Assembly: GCA_044229975.1 (NCBI GenBank)
Contig: JBGARZ010000020.1
Coordinates: forward strand, 108,036 to 172,035
Origin: Polyangiales bacterium
GTDB lineage: Bacteria > Myxococcota_A > Polyangia > Polyangiales > Ga0077539
DNA length: 64,000 nt
Reading direction: 5' to 3'
Shown: positions 31,134-59,143 of the stretch, piece after piece
How positions within the stretch are numbered: the stretch's first letter is position 1
Layout: each line of letters begins with the position of its first letter
Notes under the pieces: model-generated
Told to the model about the DNA's origin: nothing
Seen by the model: only the letters and a program-made list of their open reading frames with translations
Databases searched by the model: none
Position numbers and translations under genes: made by a program

Positions 31134-31215
31134 GCGAGGATGGCGGAATTGGCAGACGCACTAGCTTGAGGTGCTAGCGAGTAACATCGTGGGGGTTCAA
31201 GTCCCCCTCCTCGCA
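31134..31215 (+). tRNA. tRNA-Leu (anticodon GAG); CCA not encoded
   Basis: Acceptor GCGAGGA/TCCTCGC plus discriminator A, D loop GGAATTGGCAGAC, anticodon arm CTAGC-TTGAGGT-GCTAG, long variable arm, T arm GGGGG-TTCAAGT-CCCCC. Confidence 0.97.
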
Positions 31216-31220
31216 CTCTA

Positions 31221-31263: not shown

Positions 31264-31288
31264 GTTCACCCAAACGGTTCACCCAAAC
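31264..31288 (+). repeat. Direct repeat GTTCACCCAAAC x2, putative integrase arm-type sites
   Basis: Exact 12-mers at 31264 and 31277 near the tRNA end, overlapping the integrase stop. Confidence 0.6.
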
Positions 31289-32591: not shown

Positions 32592-32602
32592 CGGGCGGCA
32601 CC

Positions 32603-32938
32603 TTAGCGGACGGAACGGCCAGACGCCGGTCGGTTGTCGATCTCTTCGTCGAGGTCCAGTTGATTGGCGGCACGCGCGCGGCGGACTCCGACGGTGGGCA
32701 TGCGCTCGACCGCAGCGTCAACCGCAGCGGGCTCGACCCAAGTGTCACGGTGGTTGTCCTCGCGAAGGGAGACCGCTCGGGCAAGACACCACGCGCGAAA
32801 GGCACGGGTCGAACTGAAGCCACGACGGCTCGCCTCCGCCTCGATCCGTCGCCAGCGCGGAGCCTCCTGTAGCGGTGCCAGATCCCTGATGATGATGGCC
32901 ACCGCGTCGCGTAGCGGGTCAGCCACGGTCGCCTTCAA
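32603..32938 (-). CDS. Small basic protein, possible excisionase/HTH
   Basis: Immediately upstream of the integrase; EASRRGFSSTRAFRAWC...TWVEPAAVDA resembles MerR-like xis folds. Confidence 0.45.
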   Translation of the reverse strand: MKATVADPLRDAVAIIIRDLAPLQEAPRWRRIEAEASRRGFSSTRAFRAWCLARAVSLREDNHRDTWVEPAAVDAAVERMPTVGVRRARAANQLDLDEEIDNRPASGRSVR

Positions 32939-33100
32939 CGGGTGATCGGTCGCGGATCACAGAAGCCGCTGCGTCACTCGCGAACATGGAGGGCAGAGCA
33001 CCACGAGGCCCTCCTTGGATGGCTCGCGGTTCCTTGGCGCGGCTTGCTTGAAATGGGGTCACGAGACCTTTACGCCCTCAGCGCGGGTGGGCCAGACGAT

Positions 33101-36100
33101 TTACGACGCGAGGGTGACCGCGACGGGAGAGGTGGCGTCGAGGACCGCTTCCAATTGCGCCATGGCCTCATCGGTCAGGTCAGAGAATGCCTTCGGTCGT
33201 CCCTCACGATCGGGGTGAAGAATGTGTTGTGTCCGATGTTCCGACCACCGGAGGGCATGGTCGGCCTGGGCTCCAGCCACGTAGAACCGTCGTTGCCCAC
33301 CGACCTTCGACTCCCGAAGCTCGACTCCGAAATGCTCCAGTGTGACCCGCACCAACCGGATCTGATCCCGATCGATGTCTGCCCGGACGACGATTCCCAA
33401 GGTCTCCAAGATCCGACGGTGGCGCTTGGCGTATGCGGCCACGCGGCCATCCGTGTGAACTTCCGTCGCGGCCCCCCATATTGTCGGGTCACGCGGGAGA
33501 CCTGCCGCATTGAGGATGTCCCCCCATGCGACGCAGTGAAGGTAGGAGAAGCTCGCGTGCGACGCGGGCACCCCTTGGCTCCGTTCTCGCCGGTCCATAG
33601 CCTTGACCGCGTCGGGATCGGTCACGAAGGCCCGGTACTTTGCGAACGCCCGCACCCGCGACGCGAGCTTGGTGTCTGCCACCTCGTTGACGGTCACACC
33701 AGGACCCAACAACTCCCGTGCTCGGTATTTCCGAATGGCGTCGGCGTCCTCCGGCGAGAGGTCGGTGCCGTCCAGCGCGTCGGCCTCGGTGTGCATCAGA
33801 TCACGGGCGGACCAGATCCGACGGGCCTCGGCCTCGCGTACCCGTGCCGCGGTGTCCTTGTGGAACTTCGTGACCTCTCGGCGTTGGCTCTGATCCAGGA
33901 CGCCCGAGGCCTCCAGCGTGGCGGCGTCCTCGGTCTCGGTAACGCCCGCTCCCTGACCTCGCAGATACGCCAGCAGCGCCCATCGACGGTCGCCGCCCGG
34001 GCCGCCGGTGCGACGCTCATAGGACAACACTTCCGCGTAGAGCCGGTTGTGGTCCGTACGCCAAGGATCACGGACGGCTGCCCCGTCGTGATAGACGATC
34101 TCGTCCACCACATGCTGTTGCACCGTGACCACCCCATCGGGGGAAAGCACGCGAACCGTCGTGTCCCCGGCGGCCAACAGCCCGTCGTAGATCCGCTGGG
34201 GGTCCGTCTCACGGGTCCCGCGTTGGCCTGGGGGGCAGTGAATCCGCACTTCGGTCGAACGAGGATGACGGACGCGGTGAGCTGCCTGGAGAAGGTCGTG
34301 GACGGTGCCGACGCCCTCGGCGGAGTAGACGTAGATCTGGTCGTAGTGGTCACGAACCGTGATGCTGAATCCCGAGCCCAACGTGGCCGTGTAGATGAGG
34401 GCGTCGTACGGGATCAACGGGTCGTTGAGGAACGCCTTGACCCTCGGGTCGGCGCGGACGGTCGTCGAGTTGATGAGCAACACGGAGGCTTCGGGGCGAA
34501 CCCGGAGGAGTTCATCCCGGAGCCACCCGACATCCATCGGCGGATCTTTCAGTTGCGTGCCCTTCACCGTGCTCTGGCGTTTCGACTGGCAATGAACGAC
34601 GAGGCGCTTCCCCGCGGCCCAATCGAGAAGAAGATCCCGGTCGGTCAAGGCCCGTACGGAGTCCACCCGATACGTGAACATCGGGATCGCAGGCAAGCAT
34701 CGCAATTCTTGATCGCGAGCGTCGTCGGGGTCGATTCCGAGAAGCTCCCGTGCAAGGCGGAAGGACCACGGATCGAGGTCGGCGTCCGCGATCACCACCT
34801 GTTCTGCGTTCTCGCAGAGACCTCGCAGTTGCCGGTGAACAGCCTCCGACTGAGGTCCTGAGAGCGTGGCACTGAAAAGGTGTCTGAGCGCCTGGGTGAA
34901 CTCGTCCAACACCACGAGGGCCGGGCGGATCGGCACCACGGTCCCGTCGGGTGTGGTGGTGCATGAGACGATCCGAAGCACCGAGTCCAGGCAGACGGCG
35001 AGGTCGCCCTCGACCCGGCGGGGTACACCGGGGTCCAGATAGCAGATCACCTGAAACCTCTGTGCCGCCTGCTGGGCGATGGTCTGGCGGTGGCTGATCA
35101 CCAGCACCGAGCCGGTGGCTCCCGAGGCACGGACCGCGTCGATGGCCCTTCGAATGACCTCGGTCTTCCCGGTGCCCTTGTCCGCGTGGAACCCGGTGAG
35201 GCGTGCCCGCAGTGGCTCGTACGGCAGATACCGACCCTCCACGAGCTCGTCGGCCCGATACACCCGCAGTCCCCCGACGGCTTCGAGGTCCCGCATGAGG
35301 GAGTTCCGAGAGGTGTTTTCGACGCCCGAGGGGGGGGTCGCACAATGGTCTCTTCTATTATTGTTGACACCATTTGTGCGACCCCCCCTAACTCCTTTGA
35401 GTGACACAGCATTTTCGGCTTCCGCCGCTTCTGTGCGCCCCCCCTTGGTCGCCGCCGCCGAGGGGCACCTCGAAGATCCCGGTGGCCGTCTCTCGAATCC
35501 CTCTGGGAACCCGTCGCGGTGCCAGAAACTCGTGTTGAGCTTCCACGACCGAAGCCACACGCGGCCATCGGCGTCGTGCCGAAGGACGCACGAACTCCCA
35601 TCGAGGTAGGTTTCGCCAGCCCGGCGCGGTTCCACTTGCCACGGGTTGCCGATGGGGCTGAACTCCGACCCCACAGGCACGTTCCCACGGGTCCACGTCA
35701 GGAGGTCAACGCCCGCCGTCGGGTGGAGCACCTGCGAGAAGTCCACGGTCACGTTCGCCCAAGAAGCAGCGCCGCTCCCCTTGCCCGTCGTGGTGTCCCG
35801 GACCTTCGACGCCCGTCGCATCTTCGCAGCGATGTCGCCGGGCACGGGCAGCGACGGCCATCGGGCCCGGTGAGACGGCTTGTCCACGGCCATGACCGTC
35901 TCTGCTTCGGACAGAATCGGCGCGAGGTCGAGGAGGGTGTCCGCAGCCTCGCCGCACCCACGAGCAGGCGGAACCCCGCCCCAATCACCTTCGCCCGCGA
36001 TTCGGGATGCGGGGTGCGACGGCAGGTAGAAGAGCCGCCCGTCCATCGCACGGGAGTCACAGGAGGGTTCCCCTGGTTTCACGGAGTCGAGGGGCAGACC

Positions 36101-36682
36101 CGCATCGATCAACTTCCGCCGCCCCCACCACCACGCCCGACAGGCGTCCTCGAAGGTAGTCGGTGCGGCGAGCAAGAGCACCACTCGAACGGATGCGTAC
36201 CCGTCTTTGCACGACCACGTCGTCCAAACCAGACGGCGGAGGCCGATGAAGGCCCTGTTGATGATATCCGACACGTCCTGGACAGAGAGCCCAACTGCGT
36301 CGAGATCGAAGGGGAGCATCACCCAGAGAGCCTGCTGGCATGAGACACCCCGTTTGGCACCGTTCGGGAGGCGATATGGTAGAACGCCCCGGGCGCACTC
36401 CTTCATCTTCAGGGGGTTCTTCTTCGTATGGGCTTTGTCTGCCCATGTGAACCTGTCCTTCTTGTTCGCGATAGCCTGTGGGAACAGAAGGGCTCGTACC
36501 GAGAGCCCCCAACCCTGCGGGGAAACGTCGATCACGACGTGATCCACTCGCCGCGGACACTCCATTCTTGGTGCGATATCGAGGACGACTTCGACGGCTT
36601 CGTTCGCATTGGAAGGACTATCGTTTGTGGTATTGTGAGTTGTCACGTCGTTGGTCCTTGCGAGCCCCGCCCTTGTCGCCAA
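33101..36682 (-). CDS. Replication protein: primase-polymerase-like N-terminus plus UL9/CyRepA1-type SF2 helicase
   Basis: FDLD...WTTWS...VRVVLLL...RLFYLP (AEP-like); HADKGTGKT, VISHRQTIA, VLDEF, ADADL, IYTATLGSGFSI, QAAHRVR (SF2). Start uncertain. Confidence 0.75.
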   Translation of the reverse strand: MATRAGLARTNDVTTHNTTNDSPSNANEAVEVVLDIAPRMECPRRVDHVVIDVSPQGWGLSVRALLFPQAIANKKDRFTWADKAHTKKNPLKMKECARGVLPYRLPNGAKRGVSCQQALWVMLPFDLDAVGLSVQDVSDIINRAFIGLRRLVWTTWSCKDGYASVRVVLLLAAPTTFEDACRAWWWGRRKLIDAGLPLDSVKPGEPSCDSRAMDGRLFYLPSHPASRIAGEGDWGGVPPARGCGEAADTLLDLAPILSEAETVMAVDKPSHRARWPSLPVPGDIAAKMRRASKVRDTTTGKGSGAASWANVTVDFSQVLHPTAGVDLLTWTRGNVPVGSEFSPIGNPWQVEPRRAGETYLDGSSCVLRHDADGRVWLRSWKLNTSFWHRDGFPEGFERRPPGSSRCPSAAATKGGRTEAAEAENAVSLKGVRGGRTNGVNNNRRDHCATPPSGVENTSRNSLMRDLEAVGGLRVYRADELVEGRYLPYEPLRARLTGFHADKGTGKTEVIRRAIDAVRASGATGSVLVISHRQTIAQQAAQRFQVICYLDPGVPRRVEGDLAVCLDSVLRIVSCTTTPDGTVVPIRPALVVLDEFTQALRHLFSATLSGPQSEAVHRQLRGLCENAEQVVIADADLDPWSFRLARELLGIDPDDARDQELRCLPAIPMFTYRVDSVRALTDRDLLLDWAAGKRLVVHCQSKRQSTVKGTQLKDPPMDVGWLRDELLRVRPEASVLLINSTTVRADPRVKAFLNDPLIPYDALIYTATLGSGFSITVRDHYDQIYVYSAEGVGTVHDLLQAAHRVRHPRSTEVRIHCPPGQRGTRETDPQRIYDGLLAAGDTTVRVLSPDGVVTVQQHVVDEIVYHDGAAVRDPWRTDHNRLYAEVLSYERRTGGPGGDRRWALLAYLRGQGAGVTETEDAATLEASGVLDQSQRREVTKFHKDTAARVREAEARRIWSARDLMHTEADALDGTDLSPEDADAIRKYRARELLGPGVTVNEVADTKLASRVRAFAKYRAFVTDPDAVKAMDRRERSQGVPASHASFSYLHCVAWGDILNAAGLPRDPTIWGAATEVHTDGRVAAYAKRHRRILETLGIVVRADIDRDQIRLVRVTLEHFGVELRESKVGGQRRFYVAGAQADHALRWSEHRTQHILHPDREGRPKAFSDLTDEAMAQLEAVLDATSPVAVTLAS
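35331..35445. other. Candidate replication origin inside the rep gene
   Basis: Perfect 15-bp inverted repeat (35331-35345 / 35374-35388) around a 28-bp AT-rich spacer; third degenerate box at 35432-35445. Confidence 0.55.
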
Positions 36683-36777
36683 ACAAGGGGGCGGGGCATC
36701 GCCTTTTGGGGGTTATGGGTTCATCTGGATGAGCGTTCGGTTGTCCGCGAGAGGGCACCGCCACCGCGCCACACGCC

Positions 36778-36996
36778 TCATGGCGTCCCCTCGATGAGCC
36801 TCTCGACCGCGAGCACATCCACCCTCACGGCCCGACCCAGACGGAGCGGGGCGATGCCCAGCCGACGAAGGGTTCTCTCGACCGTTCGCGGGCTGCACTT
36901 CCACCTCGCGGATGCCTGCTCGACCGTCATCCACAGGCGGTCGGTGTTCGGGGCCTGGGAGGGGGACGAGGGGGGTGTCGGGACGGGTGTGGTCAT
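36778..36996 (-). CDS. HTH_17/excisionase-like DNA-binding protein
   Basis: WMTVEQASARWKCSPRTVER...LRLGRAVRV; RBS GGAGG before ATG 36996. Confidence 0.75.
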   Translation of the reverse strand: MTTPVPTPPSSPSQAPNTDRLWMTVEQASARWKCSPRTVERTLRRLGIAPLRLGRAVRVDVLAVERLIEGTP

Positions 36997-37493
36997 CGGC
37001 TTGCTCCTCCAAGGGCGCGCCGATAGGCCAAGTACCGAGGGGACGGCCCCGGACGGCGCGCGGTGCCGTGCGTTCGTCGCGGGTGCGTCGGGTGAAGGGG
37101 AGTCGGTGCGGGTCATGAACCCTTTACGCACTCGACGTGGGGGGACGGTCGAATTCGTCCTCCATCTGAACCGACATCGACTCGGTGGTCTTGAAACGTG
37201 ATTTCGTCCCGCCGGGACTACTCGGGGGACGTCGGGGGGACGACAGACGCCCTGGGGGCATCAGGCAAAAGGGGGGTTTGCAGGGGTTTAGTGACCTTTT
37301 CGAGGTGGCTCCCCCCGGTTCATAAGAACCGCAAAGATAAGTTCCGACCCCCCCGGTCCTACCCCCAAAAGGCTCTATCGATCCGGCAAGGATTTTCTGA
37401 GGGCCTTGGCTTCAATGGGGTTCGGCCTGCCTTCACCGCAGCCTGCCCCGCGCCCGGCCTCGGGGAGGTTCCGTGGGAATCGGCAGGGCGGCA

Positions 37494-37559
37494 GTCGATC
37501 TCGCTAAACACCGCCCCGCGAGAGTTGTGAGGAGGTGGGAGGGGAACGGCTCGCTGACC
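37494..37559 (+). promoter_or_regulatory. Conserved motif copy 1: TCGCTAAACACC-N8-AGAGTTG...GGGGAACGG
   Basis: Three copies with identical spacing; this copy is upstream of the AAA ATPase. Confidence 0.65.
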
Positions 37560-37609
37560 CATTGTGGGCAGGAGTGTCGTCGCCTCATCCCCACCGAAAA
37601 CAACGACCT

Positions 37610-38752
37610 ATGACCACGACCCTCACATCCAACGGCACGCTCGGCCCCACCCTCGACGCGACCAACCTCGCCACCGTGCTGGGCCACGTCCTTGAGGCGA
37701 ACGCCCTGGCGACCGCCTACTGTGAGCTCCCGACGCCCGTGTGCATCTGGGGCCCGCACGGCATCGGCAAGACCGCCCTCGTGAGGGAGCTCGCTCGCAC
37801 CCGGGGTTGGGGCTTCGTCGTCGTAGCACCGGCACAGATCGAGGAGCTCGGGGACCTCCATGGTCTGCCCACGCGCATCGACGGCGGGACCGGCGAAGCC
37901 AAGGACGGGCGCACGGGCTTCCTGCCGCCCACCTGGGTCCCGACCCAGAAGGGCCCCGGCATCCTCCTGTTGGACGATTTGAACCGCGGGGACGTTCGCG
38001 TGTTGTCCGCCCTCATGCAGCTCCTCCAGACGCACCGCCTGTACTCCTGGTCGTTGCCTCCCGGATGGCAGATCGTCTGCACCGCGAACCCGGACAGCGG
38101 GTCGTACGCCGTGACGCCGATGGACGACGCGATGCTCACCCGGATGGTGCACTTCACGATGACCTTCGACGCGAGGGTCTGGGCGCGGTGGGCCCACGAC
38201 GCCGGGATCGACCCCCGCTGCATCGAGTTCGTGACGACGTACCCCGAGGCTGTTCTTGGTCGGCGTACGACGCCCCGCACGCTGGTGCAGTTGTTCCGCC
38301 TCGTCGCCCCGATCCGCGACTTCAACAGCGCCCGCGAGCTCGTCTCCAGGCTCGCGCATTCGACCCTCGACGTTGGTACCGCGGCGTCGTTCGTGAGCTT
38401 TGTCTGTGTCGAACAACACCAGCTCGCCACCGCCAAGGACATCCTCGACGCCGCCACCCCTGCGGACGCGCGCAAGCACATCATCAACGCCGCGACCGAC
38501 CACACTCAGGGAGGGCGGCTTCGCATCGACCGTGTGGGGCTGGTGATCGCTCGCATCGAAGAGGTGATCGAGGCCGACGACTACACCCCCGGCCCCCGGC
38601 ACCCGGCCAATCTCTCGGCCCTACTCGCGAGCGCGGAGGTGCCGCGGGACATGGCGATGCGCCTGCACCGCGCCCTCGCACGACGGGGCCTCGGGCATCT
38701 CGTGCGAGACCGCGCCGTTGCGAAGCGCCTCCTCAACGAGGGGGCGTCGTGA
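37610..38752 (+). CDS. AAA+ ATPase (MoxR-related, partner of DUF2201-VWA)
   Basis: CIWGPHGIGKT, PPTW, ILLLDDLNRGD, IVCTANP, MDDAMLTR, TPRT. Confidence 0.85.
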   Translation: MTTTLTSNGTLGPTLDATNLATVLGHVLEANALATAYCELPTPVCIWGPHGIGKTALVRELARTRGWGFVVVAPAQIEELGDLHGLPTRIDGGTGEAKDGRTGFLPPTWVPTQKGPGILLLDDLNRGDVRVLSALMQLLQTHRLYSWSLPPGWQIVCTANPDSGSYAVTPMDDAMLTRMVHFTMTFDARVWARWAHDAGIDPRCIEFVTTYPEAVLGRRTTPRTLVQLFRLVAPIRDFNSARELVSRLAHSTLDVGTAASFVSFVCVEQHQLATAKDILDAATPADARKHIINAATDHTQGGRLRIDRVGLVIARIEEVIEADDYTPGPRHPANLSALLASAEVPRDMAMRLHRALARRGLGHLVRDRAVAKRLLNEGAS

Positions 38753-39963
38753 TGGTGGCCCGTGAGCCCGTCACCATCACCGACGATGAGTGCTGCGAGC
38801 TCCTCGCGACCGCGTCGTGGGACCTCGGCCGCAAGCTCCCCTTCTACGGGCACGTCCTCGCCGCGTTCGACCGCGTCGTTGGTGTCTCCGTTCCCACCGC
38901 CGCCGTGGGTGCGGGTCACGAAGGGCAGCCCACGCTCTTCCTCAACCCAACGTTCTTCGGGGCCACGCTGCGACGCGACGAGCACCGCATCGCGGTCCTC
39001 GAACACGAGGTCCTTCACGTGGTCTGCGGCCACTTGCGGTTGAACACCGCCGAGATGCCCGACGCCCGGCGAAGGGCCATCTCGATGGACATCGTGGTCA
39101 ACCAGTACGTTTCGCACCCGCTCCCACGCGGCGCGGTCACCCTCGCGGCGTTCAAGGACTTCCCCGCCGGGCTCACCGTCGAGAGCTACTACCGCCTGTT
39201 GTCCAAGATCCCCGACGAGGAGCTCGCGAGGTTCGGGCGGGACCTTTCCCGCGGGCACAACCGCTGGAGCGACCCTCAAACAGACGAGAGCGGGCAACGG
39301 CTCGTGGACACGCTCGACGAGATCGTCACCGAGGCCCTGCGTCGGGCTGAACGCGATGGGAGCTTCGACTCCCTCGCCAAGCCGCTGCGGCTGTCGCTCT
39401 TGCGGGGTCGTCTCTCTCCCGTGGGTGCCACCGACTGGCGGCGTGCCCTGCGGCTCTTCAGTGCCCGCGCCCTCCGTGCTGGTGTGCGCGCCACCAACCA
39501 ACGGGAGTCCCGCCGCTACGGAGCCTCCACGGGCGACTGGCGGGGTCCAATCGTGCCGGGCCTCCGTCGCGGTCGCAGACCCTCCTTGGCGGTGGCCATC
39601 GACACGTCGGGTTCGATCCCGATCGACACTGTCGGGAGGTTCTACGAGGAGGTCGGGCGCATCGTCGCCGCCGGAGCCACCGTCCACATCATCGAGTGCG
39701 ACCTCGCGGTGCAGCGCACCTACCCGTGGACAGGGGTGCCGCCCACGCACTCCACGGGCGGCGGTGGGACGAACTTCGACCCCGTCTTCCGGTGGCTCAT
39801 CAACGAGGGCCGCCGGTTGAACCTCTCGGGCTGCGTGTACCTCACCGACGGTCACGCCCCGCGCCCTCTTGTACGCCCGCCGGTCCCGGTGCTCTGGGCG
39901 GTCACCGCCAACGGGACGAACGCCAACACGGCCTTCGGGCCGAGCATCTCCCTGCCCGCGTAG
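38752..39963 (+). CDS. DUF2201-type metallopeptidase (HEXXH) plus VWA domain protein
   Basis: VLEHEVLHVV, MDIVVNQ, AVAIDTSGSI, GGGGTNFDPVF, YLTDG; TGATG overlap with the ATPase. Confidence 0.85.
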   Translation: MVAREPVTITDDECCELLATASWDLGRKLPFYGHVLAAFDRVVGVSVPTAAVGAGHEGQPTLFLNPTFFGATLRRDEHRIAVLEHEVLHVVCGHLRLNTAEMPDARRRAISMDIVVNQYVSHPLPRGAVTLAAFKDFPAGLTVESYYRLLSKIPDEELARFGRDLSRGHNRWSDPQTDESGQRLVDTLDEIVTEALRRAERDGSFDSLAKPLRLSLLRGRLSPVGATDWRRALRLFSARALRAGVRATNQRESRRYGASTGDWRGPIVPGLRRGRRPSLAVAIDTSGSIPIDTVGRFYEEVGRIVAAGATVHIIECDLAVQRTYPWTGVPPTHSTGGGGTNFDPVFRWLINEGRRLNLSGCVYLTDGHAPRPLVRPPVPVLWAVTANGTNANTAFGPSISLPA

Positions 39964-39966
39964 TTT

Positions 39967-40025
39967 TCGCTAAACACCCCCCTCGCAGAGTTGTTAGGGG
40001 TTGGAAGGGGAACGGTTCAGACCGA
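39967..40025 (+). promoter_or_regulatory. Conserved motif copy 2
   Basis: TCGCTAAACACC-CCCCTCGC-AGAGTTG-TTAGGGGTTGGAAGGGGAACGG. Confidence 0.65.
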
Positions 40026-40093
40026 CGCGGGCACCGGGTGGTGCTCGTCGTCGCGACGACCATCCCGCGCCCGCCATGGTCGAACGCTCGCGT

Positions 40094-40157
40094 GTCGATC
40101 TCGCTAAACACCCACATCCCAGAGTTGATAGGGGGGAAGGGGGACGGAACGCTGACC
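40094..40157 (+). promoter_or_regulatory. Conserved motif copy 3
   Basis: GTCGATC-TCGCTAAACACC-CACATCCC-AGAGTTG-ATAGGGGGGAAGGGGGACGG, upstream of the DUF932-like gene. Confidence 0.65.
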
Positions 40158-40286
40158 GATACGACGCACGGGCGGTCGTCACGGAGAGCCCCGCAACACC
40201 CGCTTCGAGAACCCCCGACCATTCACCGAGAGCACGCGCCCTTGCGCTCTCTCACCCCTCTCTATTCACCGAAAGGAACCGTCTCC

Positions 40287-41366
40287 ATGAACCACGCCGT
40301 CGTCCCCGCCAACATCACCACGCTCGCCCGAACGTCCATCGCCGCCAACACCTCCTCGCCGCCGCCTACCCGGATGCTCAAGGGCCGCTCGTTCGCCAAC
40401 GTGTTCGAGTCCGTGATGACTCGCGCTGGCGAGATGGTCCCCGACCGTGTCGTCCACGTCGCCGACCTGCGTATGACGCCCGAGGGCCACGTCGAGCTCC
40501 CCGGCGGCACGCGCTACCGCCTCAACGACTGGGCTCGCAAGGGCCTCGCCTCGATGCTCGGTCTCCGCTGGGAGACGTGGTTCAAGTCGGCCTCGGGTGA
40601 GGAGCGCGCCGAGGAGGTCAACCGCCGCTTCAGCAGGATTCCGGGCGAGAAGAAGATCCGTGCGTGGCGCGACGACGACGGTGTGGCCGATGGCATCGCC
40701 AGGGCCTTCCTCGCCCCGGGCTTCACGCCCATCGACGACGCCCGGATCTTCGAGCGCATGAACACCATGCTCAAGGGGCTCGTCAGCGAGTACGTGTGGA
40801 CCGCCACGGAGTTCACCGACTCGACGAGCAACTTCACGGCGGTCCACACCGAGGCGTTCGACCTGGACGGCGACCGGCTGCACCCCGGGTTCCATCTCAG
40901 GAACTCAGAGGTGGGTGGGGCGGCGCTGTCCCTCGATGACTACGCCATGAGGCTCGTCTGCATGAACGGGCTCATGGTGCGGGTCGGCGGCAAGCGCTCC
41001 CTCTACCGCACGCACCGCAGCATCGAGGACGACCAGCTCGCGGCTGCCCTCGTGATTGCCGTGGGTCGCCTTCCCCAGCGGTGGCAGGTCTCCTTGGAGT
41101 GGATGCGCGCTGCCAAGGGCCTCGCCGTCGCCCACCCCGACGACGCGGTGGCCGCGATCCTCGGTGATTCCACCGAGGTGCCGAAGGCCCTCATCGAAGA
41201 GGCGCAGCGCGTGGTGCTCCGCGACGGGGATGCGACGCGCTTCGGCGTCGTGCAGGCCATCACACTCACGGCGCATCAGTCGAACCGTAACCCCGACGTG
41301 CGGTTCGCCATGGAGCGCCTCGCGGGCGACTACCTCGCGGCCACGCCCGTCCTCACGGCAGCGTGA
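40287..41366 (+). CDS. DUF932-like phage/plasmid protein
   Basis: RAFL...FTPIDD, GFHLRNSEVG, RLVCMNGL; RBS AAAGGA. Confidence 0.7.
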   Translation: MNHAVVPANITTLARTSIAANTSSPPPTRMLKGRSFANVFESVMTRAGEMVPDRVVHVADLRMTPEGHVELPGGTRYRLNDWARKGLASMLGLRWETWFKSASGEERAEEVNRRFSRIPGEKKIRAWRDDDGVADGIARAFLAPGFTPIDDARIFERMNTMLKGLVSEYVWTATEFTDSTSNFTAVHTEAFDLDGDRLHPGFHLRNSEVGGAALSLDDYAMRLVCMNGLMVRVGGKRSLYRTHRSIEDDQLAAALVIAVGRLPQRWQVSLEWMRAAKGLAVAHPDDAVAAILGDSTEVPKALIEEAQRVVLRDGDATRFGVVQAITLTAHQSNRNPDVRFAMERLAGDYLAATPVLTAA

Positions 41367-42235
41367 CCACGCACCCGGTCGGGCCCCTCATGGACATCAT
41401 CCATGAGGGGCTCGCGGGACCCCCATCGAGGACCGCCGTGATCCTCCCCGACAACTACTCCGTCCGCGGCGCTCGTGGGCGCTTCGATCCGCAGGCGTGG
41501 ATCCGCCATCTCGCGGACCATCCCGCCGACGTTGCTCACCAGATCGAGCTCCTATCCCTCCTCGACGACGAGGTGGTTGAGACCCTGCTGGCCGGCGTGG
41601 ATGTCGGCCCGAGGTACCCGGTGAGGGCGTCGGGCTCGTCCCTGCGTTGGGTGCTTCCGCGGGTGTTCCGTCGGCCCCGTCCGGTGACTGTGCTCGACGT
41701 GAGGTTCTCGACGCACCTCGCGGCCGTACTTGGTCTCGCGGCGTGGGGCGAAGGGCCCGCTGCACGGCGAGTCCGGTCGGGACTCCGCGAGTTGCACCTC
41801 CCGCAGCGGGCTCAGTGGTGGCTGAACGACAGCCTGGAGAGCTTGAACAACCTCGTGCAGTTCACCGCGCCCGGTACCCTTTGGCACCCGGCCGCGACGT
41901 TGCCGCGACGGTTCTTCGTGATGCCGAAGATGAACGAGCTCGACCTCAACGGGGCGGGGCTTGGTGACTTCCGAGTCGCAACCACCGAGTGGAACCTCCC
42001 CGTCGTGACGCGCCTCTCCCTCTCGGGCAACAGCCTCACGAGGGTGCCTGACGCGGTGCTGCGGCTCGACACCCTGGAGGTCCTGAACCTCATGTGCAAC
42101 CCCATGAGGGAGGTGCCCGAGGCCCTCGCGGCCCTCCCGAGGCTGCGCTACCTCGACCTGCGGCAAACCGGCGTCATGTCGCTCCCGGCAGCCTTCGCCG
42201 CCCGCCCCGGACTCCATGTCCAGCGCGGGGACTGA
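41363..42235 (+). CDS. Leucine-rich repeat protein
   Basis: LSLSGNSLTRVP, LEVLNLMCNPMREVP, LRYLDLRQTGVMSLP; GTGA overlap with the DUF932-like gene. Confidence 0.75.
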   Translation: MTTHPVGPLMDIIHEGLAGPPSRTAVILPDNYSVRGARGRFDPQAWIRHLADHPADVAHQIELLSLLDDEVVETLLAGVDVGPRYPVRASGSSLRWVLPRVFRRPRPVTVLDVRFSTHLAAVLGLAAWGEGPAARRVRSGLRELHLPQRAQWWLNDSLESLNNLVQFTAPGTLWHPAATLPRRFFVMPKMNELDLNGAGLGDFRVATTEWNLPVVTRLSLSGNSLTRVPDAVLRLDTLEVLNLMCNPMREVPEALAALPRLRYLDLRQTGVMSLPAAFAARPGLHVQRGD

Positions 42236-42379: not shown

Positions 42380-42937
42380 ATGAACAACAAGCCACTCTCA
42401 TCTGTTCCGTTCCCGAACTCCACCCCGGAAGGGAGGTTCTCCCTCGACGACTCCGACGTGCTGCCCATCAAGTACGCCGGGCACGCGGTGGTGGGCGTCC
42501 TGGTGGGGTGCCGTCCTCAGTGGGTCTCTGTCGCCGTGCGAGACGGGACGTGTGGCGGGTACCACCTCGCACCCCGGCAACCGCGCGACCGCCGCGGCAT
42601 GATGGTCGCCCTCGCGGGCCACGTCGCCCTGTCGATCTACGCCGAGAGGGCAGTCATGGCTGCGGACCTCGCCACATGGGCCGAGGTCACCGACCTCGCC
42701 AGCTTCGCAGACCTGTTCACCCCGGAGGTGCGTGACGACGATCGACAGTTTCGCGACCTCTACGAGCGCCTCTGCGCCGAAGTCCGGGAATTGCTCCTGG
42801 CGCACTGGGCGAGCGTCCTCGTCCTCGCCACCGAGCTCGCAGACTGCGGGCGACTCGAAGGCCCCGAGCTCACCCGGATCGTGCGGGGGGTCACGTCCGC
42901 CCGCCGTCGTCCCGAACTGACGACGCCCGCCGGATGA
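42380..42937 (+). CDS. Stand-alone M41/FtsH-peptidase-like protein with degenerate Zn motif (paralog A)
   Basis: IKYAGHAVVG in place of HEAGHA; MVALAG; VRELLLAHWASVLVLATEL..CGRLEGPEL like the FtsH C-terminus. Confidence 0.6.
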   Translation: MNNKPLSSVPFPNSTPEGRFSLDDSDVLPIKYAGHAVVGVLVGCRPQWVSVAVRDGTCGGYHLAPRQPRDRRGMMVALAGHVALSIYAERAVMAADLATWAEVTDLASFADLFTPEVRDDDRQFRDLYERLCAEVRELLLAHWASVLVLATELADCGRLEGPELTRIVRGVTSARRRPELTTPAG

Positions 42938-43078
42938 AGCGTCTCCAGTGCCCTTCCCACCCACACCAACGAGTCGCCCTCAACCACCCATGACCATCAA
43001 CACTCCCGTTCGATCCCTCTGTTGCGCCTTCGAAACGGCCCTGAAGCCACTCTCTTCAGGAATCCAGGAGCCCCGATC

Positions 43079-44317
43079 ATGACCACCCATCAAGCCTCCC
43101 CCGTCCCGTCGTCCATCCCGACTGAGATCGACGTGAAGATCGACGACCTCAAGTTCGACCCCAAGCTCCAGACGCGGGCGAAGCCCCACGACCGGCAGTA
43201 CGTCATGGGCCTCTGCGAGGTGATCCGGGAGCGAGGGTTCCAGGATTCCATCGTGGTCTTCCGTGATCCCACCGACGGGAGCCAATGGGTGGCGGACGGC
43301 CACGCCCGGGCGGATGCCGCGAGGTCGGCCGGATGCGCCACGATCCGGGCCCGCGTCCACGAAGGTGGACTTCGAGAGGCCTTCGAGTTCGCCCTGGGAG
43401 CCAACGCCACGCACGGTGTCCGCCGGACCAACGCGGACCTTCGCCACACGGTACTGACGGCTCTCGCAGACCCCGGTACGAAGACGTACACGAACGAGAA
43501 GATCGCTGATCTGTGTCACTGCTCCGACCACTACGTCGGCGTTCTCCGCAACAAGCTGGCGGCGACGAGTGGCAACCCGGCGGAAGCTCGCCGCACGGGC
43601 AAGGATGGGAAGTCCTACCCGGCGAGGCGTCCCCGCAAGGCGGCAGTGCCGACCAGATCGAAACCGGCCAGAAGTTCCTCGGTCGCGGTGTCCCCTCCGC
43701 AGACCAGGACCGACTCGCTCGCATCGACGGACGGGGCAGCGGGGTCCAGCATCGCCATCACCAAGGGAGTGCCCACGGAGGCGAGCCACGATGGTCTGAG
43801 CGCCGAGGTGACGACGCCGACCAACTCGACGCACGTCATCCACGAGGTCGTCGGGGTCATCCCGGTTGAGCCGCCCGCGGCCCTCCTGGGAGAAGGCCCC
43901 CACGTGGTCGCCACCCCGAGTGAGGGTGAGCCCACGGCGATGCCGACCGACGCCACGGTGGTCTCCACCCCGGAGGACGTGATCCCGTCCATCACGATTC
44001 CCTCGGCGCTGGGCGAGGACGAGGAAGCTCTGTTGGGACAGCTCCTCAGCATCTGCGCGAAGATTCACGCCCGTCGCCAGCGCCAACCGGAGGTGACCGT
44101 CCGGGAGGACCTCGTTCGGGCGGCCCGCGAGAAGGTCGCGCGATGCCTGGACGAGTGCTACCCGGATACGCGGGACACCGTTCACGGGAAGCTCACCAAC
44201 GCCCCGGCCCGGTTCTACGAGATGATGGGTTACAACCCCCGTCCCGGTCACGGGAGTGACGAGGCAATTCTGGGCGTGCTCTCGGCGGAGATCGACCAGG
44301 AGCGCCTGACCACCTGA
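43079..44317 (+). CDS. ParB/Srx-like N-terminal domain plus HTH and low-complexity tail
   Basis: LQTR, IVVF, WVADGHAR, ANATHG.RRT.AD, NEKIADLCHCSDHYV; RBS AGGAG. Confidence 0.75.
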   Translation: MTTHQASPVPSSIPTEIDVKIDDLKFDPKLQTRAKPHDRQYVMGLCEVIRERGFQDSIVVFRDPTDGSQWVADGHARADAARSAGCATIRARVHEGGLREAFEFALGANATHGVRRTNADLRHTVLTALADPGTKTYTNEKIADLCHCSDHYVGVLRNKLAATSGNPAEARRTGKDGKSYPARRPRKAAVPTRSKPARSSSVAVSPPQTRTDSLASTDGAAGSSIAITKGVPTEASHDGLSAEVTTPTNSTHVIHEVVGVIPVEPPAALLGEGPHVVATPSEGEPTAMPTDATVVSTPEDVIPSITIPSALGEDEEALLGQLLSICAKIHARRQRQPEVTVREDLVRAAREKVARCLDECYPDTRDTVHGKLTNAPARFYEMMGYNPRPGHGSDEAILGVLSAEIDQERLTT

Positions 44318-44594
44318 CCGCAGGTAGATGCGCGCCTGACCCACTACGGGGCTCCTCGGTGTTGACCGAGGAGCCCCGGCCCGTCGTCCTCGCTGCGAGG
44401 GCGGGGCCGGGGAGCGCCGTGGTCGTCCGCGACCGTCCAGTACCTCAACGAGGACGGGGACACGGGTGAGCGCCGAGGGGCCAACGACGCGGAGAACCGG
44501 AGGGTGATGGTCGCGAGAAAAAATCTCGGGAGGGGGCTCATGCGGGCGTAACGCGCAGTGCAGGACACCAGACCCCCTGCAGAAGGTAAAGCAA

Positions 44595-45455
44595 ATGACG
44601 ACCAACGACGCTATCTCGAATCCGGTCTCGGCCACGCTCCCTGTGCCGGAGGTACCCTCGCTCCTTCTCTTCCGTTCCACACTGGCAATCAAGATGGCCG
44701 GACACGCGGTGGTCGGAGAGGCCATGGGCCGTCGCCCGAGGTCGGTGTGGTTGAATCCCCGTGACGGGATGTACGGAATTTACCGCATCGATAGGCCCAA
44801 AGCGGACGCTGAACTCAGCGCGATGGTCGCCCTCGGTGGGTACGCCGCCCTGAGCATCGCGGATCTGATGGACGAGCCCACGTCCAAGGGCTTCAGGGAG
44901 TCTGCTCTGTGCACCGACGCACACCACGCCTCCATGTACTTTCCCACGGAGGAGAACAACCGCCCTGCACTGGCGCTGCGGCTCCTCCCCTTCGTTCACG
45001 ACTTGCTGCTTCGGCGATGGAACAGGGTGAAGATCGTCGCCGCGTACCTCGATGAACACGGAATGATCGACGGTCCGACCCTGGGACGTCTCGTCTCTGC
45101 GGCCGACAACATCGAAGTGCCGGGCCCTCAGATCGAGGATGCTCAAGTGTTTCCGATCGCCAGTCCCGCGGTCCCCATGAAGGCCGTCGATGCGCATGAG
45201 AGTGCCGTGGTCCGAGACGCAGAGAGCACGCAGGTCAACCCCGCCAAGCCCCAACGGATCGCAAGCGAGTACGATGTGGATCTCCTCCGTGAGGTTCTCG
45301 AAGGCATCGCATCCAAGGAGGTGTCCGTCGAGGAAGCGGTGGCCTTCCTGAAGCCCACGCCGATGCAAGAGATCGCCCTTCGTTCTTTCGCCCGTGAGGG
45401 TTCCACCCTCGCCAAGGCCCTCGACGCCTTCACCTACACCCCGTCGCAGAAGTAG
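44595..45455 (+). CDS. Stand-alone M41/FtsH-peptidase-like protein with degenerate Zn motif (paralog B)
   Basis: IKMAGHAVVG, MVALGG.AALSI, VHDLLLRRWNRV..VAAYL.EHGMIDGPTL; extra C-terminal VLEGIASKEVSVEEA segment. Confidence 0.6.
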   Translation: MTTNDAISNPVSATLPVPEVPSLLLFRSTLAIKMAGHAVVGEAMGRRPRSVWLNPRDGMYGIYRIDRPKADAELSAMVALGGYAALSIADLMDEPTSKGFRESALCTDAHHASMYFPTEENNRPALALRLLPFVHDLLLRRWNRVKIVAAYLDEHGMIDGPTLGRLVSAADNIEVPGPQIEDAQVFPIASPAVPMKAVDAHESAVVRDAESTQVNPAKPQRIASEYDVDLLREVLEGIASKEVSVEEAVAFLKPTPMQEIALRSFAREGSTLAKALDAFTYTPSQK

Positions 45456-48527: not shown

Positions 48528-51500
48528 ATGATCCAGCTCGAACAGCTCCAACCCCGCGCCGCGATCCGGGGCATCGTCCCGGACGCGCTGGTCGTCGTGG
48601 TCAGCGTCCAGTGGTTCGGCTCCGAGGCGCTCGAACTCACGTACAAGACCTCCACCGGGAAGGTCGCCAACGAGCTGCTGTACCGCGACGACGAGGCCCG
48701 CCTGGACGTCGTCGAACAGGGCCGCCCCTGGAGCTTCGACGGCGACGGTGCCCTCTTCCGCCTCGTCTCCGAGGCGCAGCGCATCCGCCTCGCGCACCTC
48801 TTCGACCCCGTGCTCGCCGTGCATACCTCCGTGGTCGATCCGCTCCCGCACCAGATCACGGCGGTCTACGAGGCCATGCTGCCCCGGCAGCCGCTGCGCT
48901 TCCTGCTGGCCGACGACCCGGGTGCGGGCAAGACCATCATGGCGGGCCTGCTCATCAAGGAGCTCATCGCCCGCGGCGACCTGCAACGCTGCCTCATCGT
49001 GTGCCCCGGCAGCCTCGCCGAGCAGTGGCAGGACGAGCTCTACCGGCGCTTCCACCTGCCGTTCGAGATCCTCACCAACGACAAGGTCGAGGCCGCCCGC
49101 ACCGGCAACTGGTTCCTTGAGACCAACTTGGTGATCGCCCGCCTCGACAAGCTCTCACGCAACGAGGACATCCAGCAGAAGCTCCAGGCCCCCGACTGCC
49201 GGTGGGATCTCGTGGTCTGCGACGAGGCCCACAAGATGTCCGCCACGGTCTTCGGCGGCGAGACCAAGTACACCAAGCGCTACCGCCTCGGGCAGCTCCT
49301 CTCGACGCTCACGCGGCACTTCCTCCTGATGACGGCGACGCCGCACAACGGCAAGGAGGAGGACTTCCAGCTCTTCATGGCGCTCCTCGACGGGGACCGC
49401 TTCGAGGGCCGCTTCCGCGACGGCGTGCACGTCGCCGACGCCTCCGACCTCATGCGCCGGATGGTGAAGGAGAACCTGCTCAAGTTCGACGGCACGCCCC
49501 TGTTCCCCGAGCGCATCGCGTACACGGTCCCCTACAAGCTCTCGGACGCCGAGGCGCACCTGTACAAGGCCGTCACGACCTACGTCCGCGAGGAGTTCAA
49601 CCGCGCCGACGCCCTGGAGAACGACAAGCGCGCGGGCACCGTCGGCTTCGCCCTCACCGTGCTCCAACGCCGTCTGGCCTCGTCGCCCGAGGCGATCTAC
49701 CAGTCGCTCCACCGACGACGCGAACGCCTGGAGAGCCGCCTCCGTGAGCTGGAGGTGCTCCAGCGCAGCGGTCAGACCGCCCCCGTCCTGGCGGCGTCGG
49801 TGCCCGCCCTCGACGCGGACGCGGTGGAGGACCTCGACGAGGCCCCGGACACCGAGGTCGAGGCGATCGAAGAGGAGGTCCTCGACCAAGCCACCGCGGC
49901 GCGGTCGATGGCGGAGTTGAAGATCGAGATCGAGACGCTGAAGGCGCTGGAGTCGCTCGCCCTCACGGTCCGCCGCAGCGGCAACGACACCAAGTGGCGC
50001 GAGCTCGCCAGCCTCCTCGGCGAGATCTTCACGGACTCGTCCATCACGAACCGTCTCGCGGAACCGAAGGTTCAGTACGGCCACGCGATCCCGCCCCCCA
50101 AGGCGTCGCCCCACCAGAAGCTGGTGATCTTCACCGAGCACCGCGACACGCTGAACTACCTCCAGAACCGCATCACGACGCTCCTCGGGCGCAAGGACGC
50201 GGTGGTGATGATCCACGGCGGGGTGGGACGTGAGGACCGGCTGAAGGTCCAGGAGGCGTTCCGGCACGACCCCGAGGTGCAGGTTCTCCTGGCCACCGAC
50301 GCCGCGGGGGAGGGCATCAACCTCCAGCGCGCCCACCTGATGGTGAACTACGACCTCCCGTGGAACCCCAACCGCCTGGAGCAACGCTTCGGGCGCATCC
50401 ACCGCATCGGCCAGACCGAGGTGTGCCACCTCTGGAACCTCGTGGCCGAGGAGACCCGCGAGGGCGATGTCTACCGGAAGCTCCTCGACAAGCTCGAACA
50501 GGCCCGCAAGGCGCTCGGCGGGCAGGTGTTCGACGTACTGGGCAAGCTCCAGTTCGAGGGGGAGTCGCTGCGGGAGCTGCTCATCAAGGCCATCCGCTAC
50601 GGGGACCAGCCCGATGTCCGGGCACGCCTCACGGTGGCGGTGGAGAACGCGCTCGACCGCACCCAGATCCAGAACCTTCTGGAAGACCACGCGCTCGCCC
50701 ACGACGTGATGGATGTCGGACGGGTCCAACGAATCCGCGAAGACATGGAGCGCGCGGAGGCCCGTCGTCTCCAGCCCCATTACATCGAGTCGTTCTTCGC
50801 GCAGGCGTTCAAGGGCCTCGGGGGCACGGTCAAGCAGCGTGAGCCTCGCCGCTACGAGATCACCCACGTCCCCGCCCCGGTTCGCAACCGAGACCGCCTC
50901 ATCGGCATTCGCGAGCCCGTGCTCCCACGGTACGAGCGCATCGCGTTCGAGAAGGCCCTCATCGCTCCCCCAGGGCAGCCCCTGGCGGCCTTCGTGTGCC
51001 CTGGGCACCCGCTCCTCGACGCGGTGCTCGACCTCACGCTCGAACGCCACCGCGACCTCCTCAAGCGCGGCGCGGTGCTCGTGGACGAGCGCGACCCTGG
51101 CACGCAGCCCCGGGTGCTCTTCTACCTCGAACACGCGATCCAGGACGCAAGCCTCACCCGCACCGGGGAGCGCCGCGTCGTCTCGAAGAAGATGCTCTAC
51201 GTCGAACTCGACGGAGAGGGCCACGCCCGCCATGTCCACTACGCGCCGTACCTCGACTACCGGCCCCTCGCCGCGGGCGAGCCCGGCGTGGACGCCCTCC
51301 TCGACCGGCCCGAGTGTGCCTGGATCGAGCGCGAGATCGAGTCGAAGGCCATGGGCCACGCCATCGCCCACGTCGTCCCCGAGCACTTGAAGGAGGTGCG
51401 GGACGCGAAGCTCGCGCTCCTCGCCAAGACCGAGGCGGCGGTGAAGGACCGGCTGACCAAGGAGATCACCTACTGGGACCACCGGGCCGAACAGCTCAAG

Positions 51501-52106
51501 ATGCAGGAGCAGGCGGGCAAGCCCAACGCCAAGCTGAACTCGGACGAGGCCCGCAAGCGCGCCGACGGCCTCCAGGGAAGGCTCCAGAAGCGCCTGGAAG
51601 ACCTCAAGCTCGAAGGGAAGATCTCCCCGCTCCCCCCCGTAGCACTCGGGGGCCTCCTGGTGATCCCGGCGGGCCTCCTCGCCGCGATGAGCGGACGGGC
51701 ACCGCTGACGACGGGCAAACCCGTGGACACCCAGGTGAGCGCGGCCCGAGCTCGCGCCGTGATCATGGACATCGAGCGTCGTCTCGGGTTCGAGCCCACG
51801 GACCGGGAGTTCGAGAAGCTCGGCTACGACATCGAGAGTCGTGTGCCGGGTACCGGCAAGCTGCGCTTCGTCGAGGTCAAGGGGCGGGTCGCGGGCGCGG
51901 ACACCATCACGGTGACCCGCAACGAGATCCTCTACTCTCTCAACAAGCCCGGCGACTTCATCCTTGCGATCGTCGAGTTCACGGGCGAGGACACGCACCG
52001 GGCCTACTACCTCCGCCAGCCCTTCCAACGGGAGCCGGACTTTGGGGTAACCAGCGTGAACTACGACTTTGCGGATCTGCTCAAGAGGTCGAGAGAGCCG
52101 TCATGA
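48528..52106 (+). CDS. SNF2-family helicase with C-terminal DUF3883 (NOV-C) nuclease-like domain
   Basis: PLPHQ, LLADDPGAGKT, DEAH, MTATPH, ATDAAGEGINLQ, EQRFGRIHRIGQ, GYDIES...VEVKG. Confidence 0.92.
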   Translation: MIQLEQLQPRAAIRGIVPDALVVVVSVQWFGSEALELTYKTSTGKVANELLYRDDEARLDVVEQGRPWSFDGDGALFRLVSEAQRIRLAHLFDPVLAVHTSVVDPLPHQITAVYEAMLPRQPLRFLLADDPGAGKTIMAGLLIKELIARGDLQRCLIVCPGSLAEQWQDELYRRFHLPFEILTNDKVEAARTGNWFLETNLVIARLDKLSRNEDIQQKLQAPDCRWDLVVCDEAHKMSATVFGGETKYTKRYRLGQLLSTLTRHFLLMTATPHNGKEEDFQLFMALLDGDRFEGRFRDGVHVADASDLMRRMVKENLLKFDGTPLFPERIAYTVPYKLSDAEAHLYKAVTTYVREEFNRADALENDKRAGTVGFALTVLQRRLASSPEAIYQSLHRRRERLESRLRELEVLQRSGQTAPVLAASVPALDADAVEDLDEAPDTEVEAIEEEVLDQATAARSMAELKIEIETLKALESLALTVRRSGNDTKWRELASLLGEIFTDSSITNRLAEPKVQYGHAIPPPKASPHQKLVIFTEHRDTLNYLQNRITTLLGRKDAVVMIHGGVGREDRLKVQEAFRHDPEVQVLLATDAAGEGINLQRAHLMVNYDLPWNPNRLEQRFGRIHRIGQTEVCHLWNLVAEETREGDVYRKLLDKLEQARKALGGQVFDVLGKLQFEGESLRELLIKAIRYGDQPDVRARLTVAVENALDRTQIQNLLEDHALAHDVMDVGRVQRIREDMERAEARRLQPHYIESFFAQAFKGLGGTVKQREPRRYEITHVPAPVRNRDRLIGIREPVLPRYERIAFEKALIAPPGQPLAAFVCPGHPLLDAVLDLTLERHRDLLKRGAVLVDERDPGTQPRVLFYLEHAIQDASLTRTGERRVVSKKMLYVELDGEGHARHVHYAPYLDYRPLAAGEPGVDALLDRPECAWIEREIESKAMGHAIAHVVPEHLKEVRDAKLALLAKTEAAVKDRLTKEITYWDHRAEQLKMQEQAGKPNAKLNSDEARKRADGLQGRLQKRLEDLKLEGKISPLPPVALGGLLVIPAGLLAAMSGRAPLTTGKPVDTQVSAARARAVIMDIERRLGFEPTDREFEKLGYDIESRVPGTGKLRFVEVKGRVAGADTITVTRNEILYSLNKPGDFILAIVEFTGEDTHRAYYLRQPFQREPDFGVTSVNYDFADLLKRSREPS

Positions 52107-52150
52107 GGGCAGCCAACGGCTCGCGGACGGGGGAACACGAGACACCATGA
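52103..52150 (+). other. 15-codon coupling ORF (MRAANGSRTGEHETP)
   Basis: ATGA overlap with the helicase stop and ATGA overlap with the methyltransferase start. Confidence 0.4.
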
Positions 52151-55044: not shown

Positions 55045-55047
55045 CCC

Positions 55048-58422
<3,375 letters not shown>

Positions 58423-59077: not shown

Positions 59078-59143
59078 TGCGAACTCACCAATCGCTGCGA
59101 GTCGCAGCACCGTTCGCGACCGCTGAGTTTGGGGAGTAGCTCG

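Follow-up and report, generated by a model that had tools for sequence, protein, structure and literature searches.

A 64,000-nucleotide stretch of DNA from a Polyangiales bacterium (GenBank assembly GCA_044229975.1, contig JBGARZ010000020.1, positions 108,036 to 172,035 of the forward strand; hereafter the window) carries two genes, K1 and K2, whose products are predicted to adopt the protease-domain fold of FtsH and other M41 peptidases and in which the zinc-binding motif H-E-A-G-H has become K-x-A-G-H. The two proteins belong to a K-x-A-G-H clade that is real, small and previously unnoted, and that is not an active M41, FtsH or FtsHi member. Judging from its conserved residues, the zinc site of this clade has been remodelled and held; it is neither erased nor decaying. 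Our preferred interpretation, to which we give slightly better than even credence, is that K1 and K2 are zinc-free pseudo-peptidases whose preserved cleft binds, and does not cut, a protein partner, to the benefit of the genomic island on which they lie.

K1, K2 and the M41 fold

The positions of the two genes, and of the residues discussed below, are as follows.

42380..42937, + strand: K1, a 185-amino-acid stand-alone protein with a predicted M41 fold, the deepest branch of the K-x-A-G-H clade
42470..42484, + strand: K1 motif K31-Y-A-G-H35, replacing H-E-A-G-H
42692..42694, + strand: K1 Asp105, at the third zinc ligand position (FtsH G-A-x-x-D)
44595..45455, + strand: K2, 286 amino acids, with a predicted M41-fold core (residues ~20-172), a disordered linker (172-224) and a small helical tail
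44691..44705, + strand: K2 motif K33-M-A-G-H37
44916..44918, + strand: K2 Asp108, at the third-ligand position, invariant across the clade
45267..45437, + strand: K2 optional C-terminal helical domain (residues ~225-281), missing from 179-amino-acid forms

The K1 protein contains LPIKYAGHAVVG, with the motif IKYAGH, and the K2 protein contains LAIKMAGHAVVG, with the motif IKMAGH. An earlier reading of the window from its letters alone (the original prediction) had described this pair of open reading frames (ORFs) and the sequence blocks they share. Both frames lie where it placed them and are 37% identical over 150 columns (expectation value, E, 5e-16). That description overlooked the ParB-like gene between them (43079-44317) and the 110-residue C-terminal extension of K2, which K1 does not have. 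The two genes are the sole copies in the 10.0-Mb genome (tblastn). Both show a coding-type codon bias (GC content at third codon positions 0.84 for K1 and 0.78 for K2) and both encode the motif Lys as AAG. Neither protein matched a Pfam, PHROGs, PADLOC or NCBIfam family, and neither K1 (185 amino acids) nor K2 (286 amino acids) includes an AAA+ domain or a membrane part. The C-terminal helical domain of K2 gave a faint SHOCT-like match in one of 22 K-type rows (E 0.09). A recent tandem duplication was rejected because the two proteins are only 37% identical and K1 is the deepest branch of the clade; from these comparisons they are old, diverged versions, and they may differ in their binding targets.

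The stretch holding K2 was recovered in near-identical contigs from all four of four wastewater and activated-sludge runs, with no change of the motif among the listed differences, so the K2 motif is not an assembly error. The allele in these contigs is ~96% identical to K2. Seventeen codons differ, seven silently and ten not, and residues 84-109, leading up to the Asp, hold eight of the ten non-silent differences; no listed difference affects K, H or D. This allele encodes a protein of 179 amino acids, and the linker and small helical tail of K2 are therefore optional. An 85-base interval of the window (44837-44921, residues 81-109) holds 14 of the 21 listed differences between K2 and the allele. 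This cluster could be a recombination patch or a diversifying surface beside the old active site.

We ran a profile made from K1 and K2 alone against 1.84 billion proteins. It gave 73 matches: five K-type proteins, 66 stand-alone M41-like proteins with HExxH (the best of these small proteins at E 1e-9), and two unrelated long repeat or giant proteins, which were left out of the family set. Pfam Peptidase_M41 (PF01434) was matched by 44 of the 62 rows of a mixed alignment (E<=0.01), and the profile of the mixed alignment matched FtsH chains at E 1e-20. A language-model search placed K1 next to M41-type clusters (score 0.97), in which 14% of the members carry PF01434.

The predicted structures gave a similar picture. 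The K1 model (predicted local distance difference test score, pLDDT, 85), built from a mixed alignment dominated by HEAGH proteins, aligned with FtsH 7tdo with a Z of 14.5 and a root-mean-square deviation (rmsd) of 2.6 Å over 142 residues. To remove the influence of the HEAGH proteins, the K2 model was folded from 22 K-type rows only, and its best matches were FtsH, YME1 and FtsHi. The protease domains of FtsH, YME1 and AFG3L2 were the top matches of both models (Foldseek, VIA-align), with the FtsHi proteins also among the top structural matches; the values for 7tdo, 4ww0 and 2di4 were Z 14-14.5 and rmsd 2.6-2.7 Å. Comparison with the M50 peptidases RseP, SpoIVFB and S2P gave Z 4.9-6.2 versus 14-17 for M41, so M41 is closer. 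These models indicate that the fold of K1 and K2 is that of the M41 protease domain. The same had been claimed originally, and with FtsH, YME1 and AFG3L2 coming first in Foldseek the absence of an M41 fold is not what was seen.

Identity of the K models to FtsH chains was only 12-22%. PF01434 was matched by none of the 22 K rows at E<=0.3, and a phmmer search of PDB sequences with K1 returned chance matches only (HIV protease, E 0.45). A profile of K-type rows alone found FtsH only at E 7.8 (23% probability by hhalign); it is thus the intermediate HEAGH proteins, together with the folds, that connect the K proteins to M41. Compared to FtsH, ~36-40 residues that follow the Asp helix and precede the last helices are absent from the K proteins, and the HEAGH stand-alone relatives show the same gap.

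The zinc site and its possible use

We collected 24 K-type rows, 22 of them with different cores, and aligned the 24 with the 66 HExxH rows. In the resulting 90 rows the first-His column holds Lys in the 24 and His in the 66, while the Glu column holds Glu in the 66 and, in the K clade, Met (23 rows) or Tyr (one row). The second His is kept in 90/90 rows, including 24/24 K rows. The third-ligand Asp, which aligns with that of FtsH GAxxD, is kept in 24/24 K rows. No row among the 90 has just one of the two changes, Lys or the loss of Glu. K-x-A-G-H is therefore the mark of a family (24/24 rows), as had been proposed, and the alternative of two isolated mutants fails, as the close homologs do not keep HEAGH.

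In a quick tree of all rows, the K rows made up one side of one branch, with a Shimodaira-Hasegawa-like approximate likelihood ratio test (SH-aLRT) value of 91, and this value was 91 again after removal of the two motif columns. A more careful tree, also built without the motif columns, combined 13 K rows with the 30 best HEAGH rows and supported the K clade at 95/83. Two independent Lys substitutions were rejected on these grounds. The trees indicate instead that Lys arose once, ancestrally, from stand-alone HEAGH peptidases.

The 22-row K alignment has a tree length of 7.3 changes per site over 179 columns, of which 18 are invariant. The sole invariant polar columns, four of 68, are K33, H37, R47 and D108; beyond these, every His, Cys, Glu and Asp column varies, including all seven Glu columns (0/7 invariant). 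Arg47-Pro48 is invariant in the K clade and not in the HEAGH relatives. With 18 invariant columns, the three ligand positions would all be among them by chance with a probability of 0.0009. In simulations a column remained invariant in 0.1% of cases if it evolved at the mean rate, and in 7-10% if rates were allowed to vary. Since the second His and the third-ligand Asp are invariant along with the Lys, the site appears to have been remodelled and not erased.

The ratio of non-synonymous to synonymous substitution rates (dN/dS) of the K genes was 0.44-0.66, compared to 0.40 for the neighboring DUF932 gene. A composition-aware ratio of second-position to four-fold distance was 0.17-0.39 for pairs that include K1, which are near saturation. 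On these estimates, selection on the whole K gene is purifying but modest. The original prediction had held that the same Lys in two paralogs speaks for selection and not decay. Purifying selection is borne out; the argument from recurrence is lost, since the shared Lys is one ancestral change, and it is the retention of Lys that carries the evidence.

In M41 peptidases the zinc is bound by HExxH together with an Asp further downstream, and the Glu serves as the general base (PMC11266112). Hydrolysis of peptides by K1 and K2 would be unlikely since the first His and the general-base Glu are both replaced, the latter by Met or Tyr, and no other invariant acidic column could substitute. In our proposal the Lys ammonium would take the place of Zn2+ and pair with the Asp and His that were kept. 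This arrangement would preserve the shape of the cleft and would also explain the joint fixation of K, H and D. A cleft that is kept in a non-cutting protein suggests one-to-one binding of a peptide or protein. It could hold an extended peptide of its target, as a substrate trap or a competitor, in the way envisaged for Ebp1 and other pseudo-peptidases. Ebp1 has Lys320 in place of a metal ligand, and its pseudo-active site is believed to serve in binding (PMC11266112). The putative target would be a regulator or a conflict protein of the island, of a rival element or of the host. Among the functions originally suggested, that of an adaptor or binder is compatible with the conserved residues.

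Four observations weigh against this proposal. The ratio of second-position to four-fold distance in K2-type pairs was ~0.5, versus 0.17 for DUF932, as expected of weak selection. The residues A35, G36 and G41 of the tightly packed motif helix are also invariant, and the invariance may be partly structural. Most of the 24 K rows are closely related and represent about five deep lineages. Finally, FtsHi proteins lose all ligands (Table 2 of PMC11266112), and the keeping of two of three by the K clade fits a changed catalytic site equally well.

The last of these points leads to the best of the alternatives, in which Lys-His-Asp, possibly with Arg47, would have become a new active site of the M41 scaffold. 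Such a site would contain either no metal or one held by a modified Lys, and it would attack a bond other than a peptide bond or work by a mechanism unlike that of zincins. We consider such a repurposed enzyme a lesser but real possibility. The only invariant polar residues are located at the old active site, they include residues that the FtsHi pseudo-proteases have lost (PMC11266112, same table), and the Arg47-Pro48 pair is peculiar to the clade. On the other hand, there is no conserved replacement for the general base among the Glu columns, fold searches return only M41- and M50-type matches, and no conserved neighbor looks enzymatic or substrate-like except the ParB-like gene, which is a remnant at one of the other loci (L004, below).

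It is improbable, in our judgment, that the K proteins are structural relics, kept for a surface function only or slowly drifting, with K, H and D fixed by core packing. A dN/dS near 0.5 in K2-type pairs would be expected of relics, as would the rarity of the genes (2/31 family genomes, 0/10 related DUF932 islands) and the hydrophobic neighbors in the motif helix, which are equally invariant. However, the frame is open in 24/24 rows, K1 and K2 share K, H and D in spite of differences at two thirds of their positions, and the non-coding block upstream of the gene is conserved. A buried, charged Lys would also be an unlikely neutral filler.

The original prediction suggested a decoy or inhibitor, for example of host FtsH; in this reading the dead domain would join or cap the protease ring. 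The K proteins are homologous to the FtsH protease domain, which forms a stable hexamer by itself (PMC12067869), and the host genome has three full-length FtsH genes. Nothing that we found points to FtsH, however, and we rate this idea as rather remote. The K proteins and their HEAGH parents alike lack a stretch of ~36-40 residues that in the FtsH protease domain separates the Asp helix from the last helices. We take this segment to line the center of the FtsH hexamer, although we found no paper to confirm it. Identity to FtsH chains is low (12-22%), neither an AAA+ nor a membrane part is present, and the nearest relatives are other stand-alone proteins, not the host FtsH.

Least probable of all is a zinc peptidase that has stayed active by binding zinc through Lys, His and Asp, an unusual set of ligands, and by using another general base: two of the three ligands are retained in 24/24 rows, but Lys is a poor Zn ligand, the Glu has become Met or Tyr, and no further His, Cys, Glu or Asp column is invariant. 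The relic, the FtsH decoy and the active peptidase fit less well than a pseudo-peptidase or a new catalytic set.

The island around K1 and K2

The other features of the island that surround the two genes in the window are listed here.

31134..31216, + strand: tRNA-Leu, the left end of the island
31266..37131, - strand: integrase, small ORF, CyRepA1-like replication helicase and HTH_17 excisionase-like gene
37535..42235, + strand: MoxR-type ATPase, DUF2201 metallopeptidase-vWA, DUF932 and LRR protein, directly upstream of K1
43079..44317, + strand: ParB-like gene between K1 and K2
44347..44378, no strand assigned: perfect 14-bp inverted repeat with a 4-nucleotide loop, behind the ParB-like gene
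44511..44562, + strand: non-coding block upstream of K2
48528..58422, + strand: HmaA/HmaB/HmaC defence cargo of the same island

The order in the window is thus tRNA-Leu, integrase, helicase, excisionase-like HTH, MoxR, DUF2201-vWA, DUF932, LRR, K1, ParB-like, K2 and HmaABC. No capsid or conjugation gene was present among the ORFs scanned, in an island that is truncated where the contig ends. The 3' end of the tRNA-Leu and the next 55 bases recur at 90% on another contig (G000 C37:1798-1875), and this copy is likely to be the right attachment site of the island.

Two further loci carry K genes. One, L004 (genome G020, on a contig labelled uncultured Myxococcaceae), is a tRNA-Gly island with an integrase, DUF932 and a replication-initiator-like HTH; the other, L005, is a 4.9-kb metagenome contig. 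A K gene sits behind a ParB-like gene or its remnant in all three loci. In L004 only ~50 C-terminal residues of the ParB-like gene remain, and the ParB-like C-termini of the window and L005 differ; an obligate pairing with the ParB-like protein was rejected on both counts. The 14-bp inverted repeat is largely retained in L004 (~1420-1450) despite the remnant there. It may serve to bind ParB or may form a hairpin in RNA.

A block of ~50 bases upstream of K2 (44511-44562) is nearly identical in the three loci (window, L004 and L005), although the proteins are only 53% identical. This block gave no sigma-70 match. It is possibly K2's own promoter or operator.

DUF932 genes occur in 11 of the 31 genomes of the host family, in up to five copies, and the regions around them have an integrase-like match within 20 kb in 8/10 cases. 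Such genes, present at 40287-41366 in the window, mark a recurring family of integrase islands in the host family. An M41-like gene was found in 0/10 related DUF932 islands (within 20 kb of each), and for this reason we rejected the K genes as an obligate island component. On tRNA-integrated islands they are rare and accessory, and the block upstream of them is conserved.

The MoxR and DUF2201 peptidase-vWA pair (37535-39963) has a distant second copy in the genome (G000 C20 ~520800-523200, ~30% identity), and neither MoxR nor vWA was matched in L004 or L005, both of which are cut by contig ends. The LRR protein directly upstream of K1 (41363-42235) has a long unassigned N-terminal part; LRR proteins are uncommon on islands of this kind. 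HmaA, HmaB and HmaC (48528-58422) are complete, HmaC with an N-terminal Swt1-like HEPN domain. A UDG-superfamily gene comes before them and a GmrSD-type gene after them (window 59129-61255).

Distribution and comparison with known systems

Besides the two of 31 genomes in the host family, K-type matches were obtained in 2/61 relatives and in 2/401 genomes of the order. In the phylum 3/401 genomes had a match of any type, two of these being weak (E 5e-7 and 7e-4). Word-index searches covered proteins of 94-501 amino acids, and a single-sequence word search with K1 recovered only K1 itself (1/1302 candidates). No long K-type protein was found in a length-free profile search of the 1.84 billion proteins, and no K-type gene in viral contigs, phage records or plasmid records. 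A first scan of genome contigs gave no K-type gene, and a second, among the matches listed, only the G020 locus again. Literature searches listed no article about K-x-A-G-H or about a bacterial family of stand-alone inactive M41 proteins. The clade is tiny and its hosts are uncultured, which limits the reach of these results.

The MoxR and vWA genes near K1 bring to mind the FtsH-type MoxR-vWA ternary systems, in which, according to Kaur et al. 2020 (PMC7159879), the third component has two FtsH-type AAA+ domains. The K proteins differ from that component in that they have no AAA+ domain.

With the protease domain of FtsH, YME1 and AFG3L2 (MEROPS M41, PF01434) the K clade shares the same predicted fold, and the motif helix, the LAG/LGG helix, the second His and the third-ligand Asp align. 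Unlike FtsH, the K clade has Lys for the first His and Met or Tyr for the Glu, has neither AAA+ motor nor membrane anchor, and has ~40 fewer internal residues.

The stand-alone HEAGH M41-like proteins are closer. They are of similar size (140-280 amino acids) and share the short architecture without the FtsH insert, and the K clade is nested among them. Examples include Atlas clusters (PF01434 in 14-17% of the members), the phage entry A0A6J5RJ76 and the Vibrio cholerae protein 5IQJ. The last, an uncharacterised 134-amino-acid structural-genomics protein in the PDB, is a solved stand-alone relative of the K fold. In contrast to the K clade, these relatives keep HExxH in 66/66 cases, and the K clade adds a conserved proline-rich N-terminal extension and the Arg-Pro after the motif helix. 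For this large, unstudied family on phages and islands, the K clade offers a natural substrate-trap.

Ebp1 (PA2G4), an M24 pseudo-peptidase, likewise has a Lys at a metal-ligand position (K320; PMC11266112). Ebp1 is a eukaryotic ribosome factor of unrelated fold, and the analogy is one of working and not of kinship. The K clade provides a compact natural experiment on whether lysine can replace a zincin's catalytic zinc, and on the role left to a protease domain that no longer cuts. If the proteins should be repurposed enzymes, a zincin would have swapped its metal for a lysine, possibly modified, and would now catalyse another reaction in the service of a myxobacterial mobile element.

A parallel for the loss itself is FtsHi1-5 of plastids, whose M41 domain is without HExxH and which are kept for a non-proteolytic role (PMC9020784, PMC11266112). 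The FtsHi proteins keep the AAA+ motor and act in a protein-import complex of the plastid envelope, and neither His is left in their motifs (TEVGV, NEAAM, REAAV and WAAGR; PMC11266112), with the Asp lost as well. The K clade keeps the second His and the Asp. The M41 pseudo-proteases described from plastids thus have the motor kept and the zinc site erased, and the K clade is the reverse: small, bacterial, island-borne and motorless, with a zinc site that appears to have been remodelled in one precise way and then fixed.

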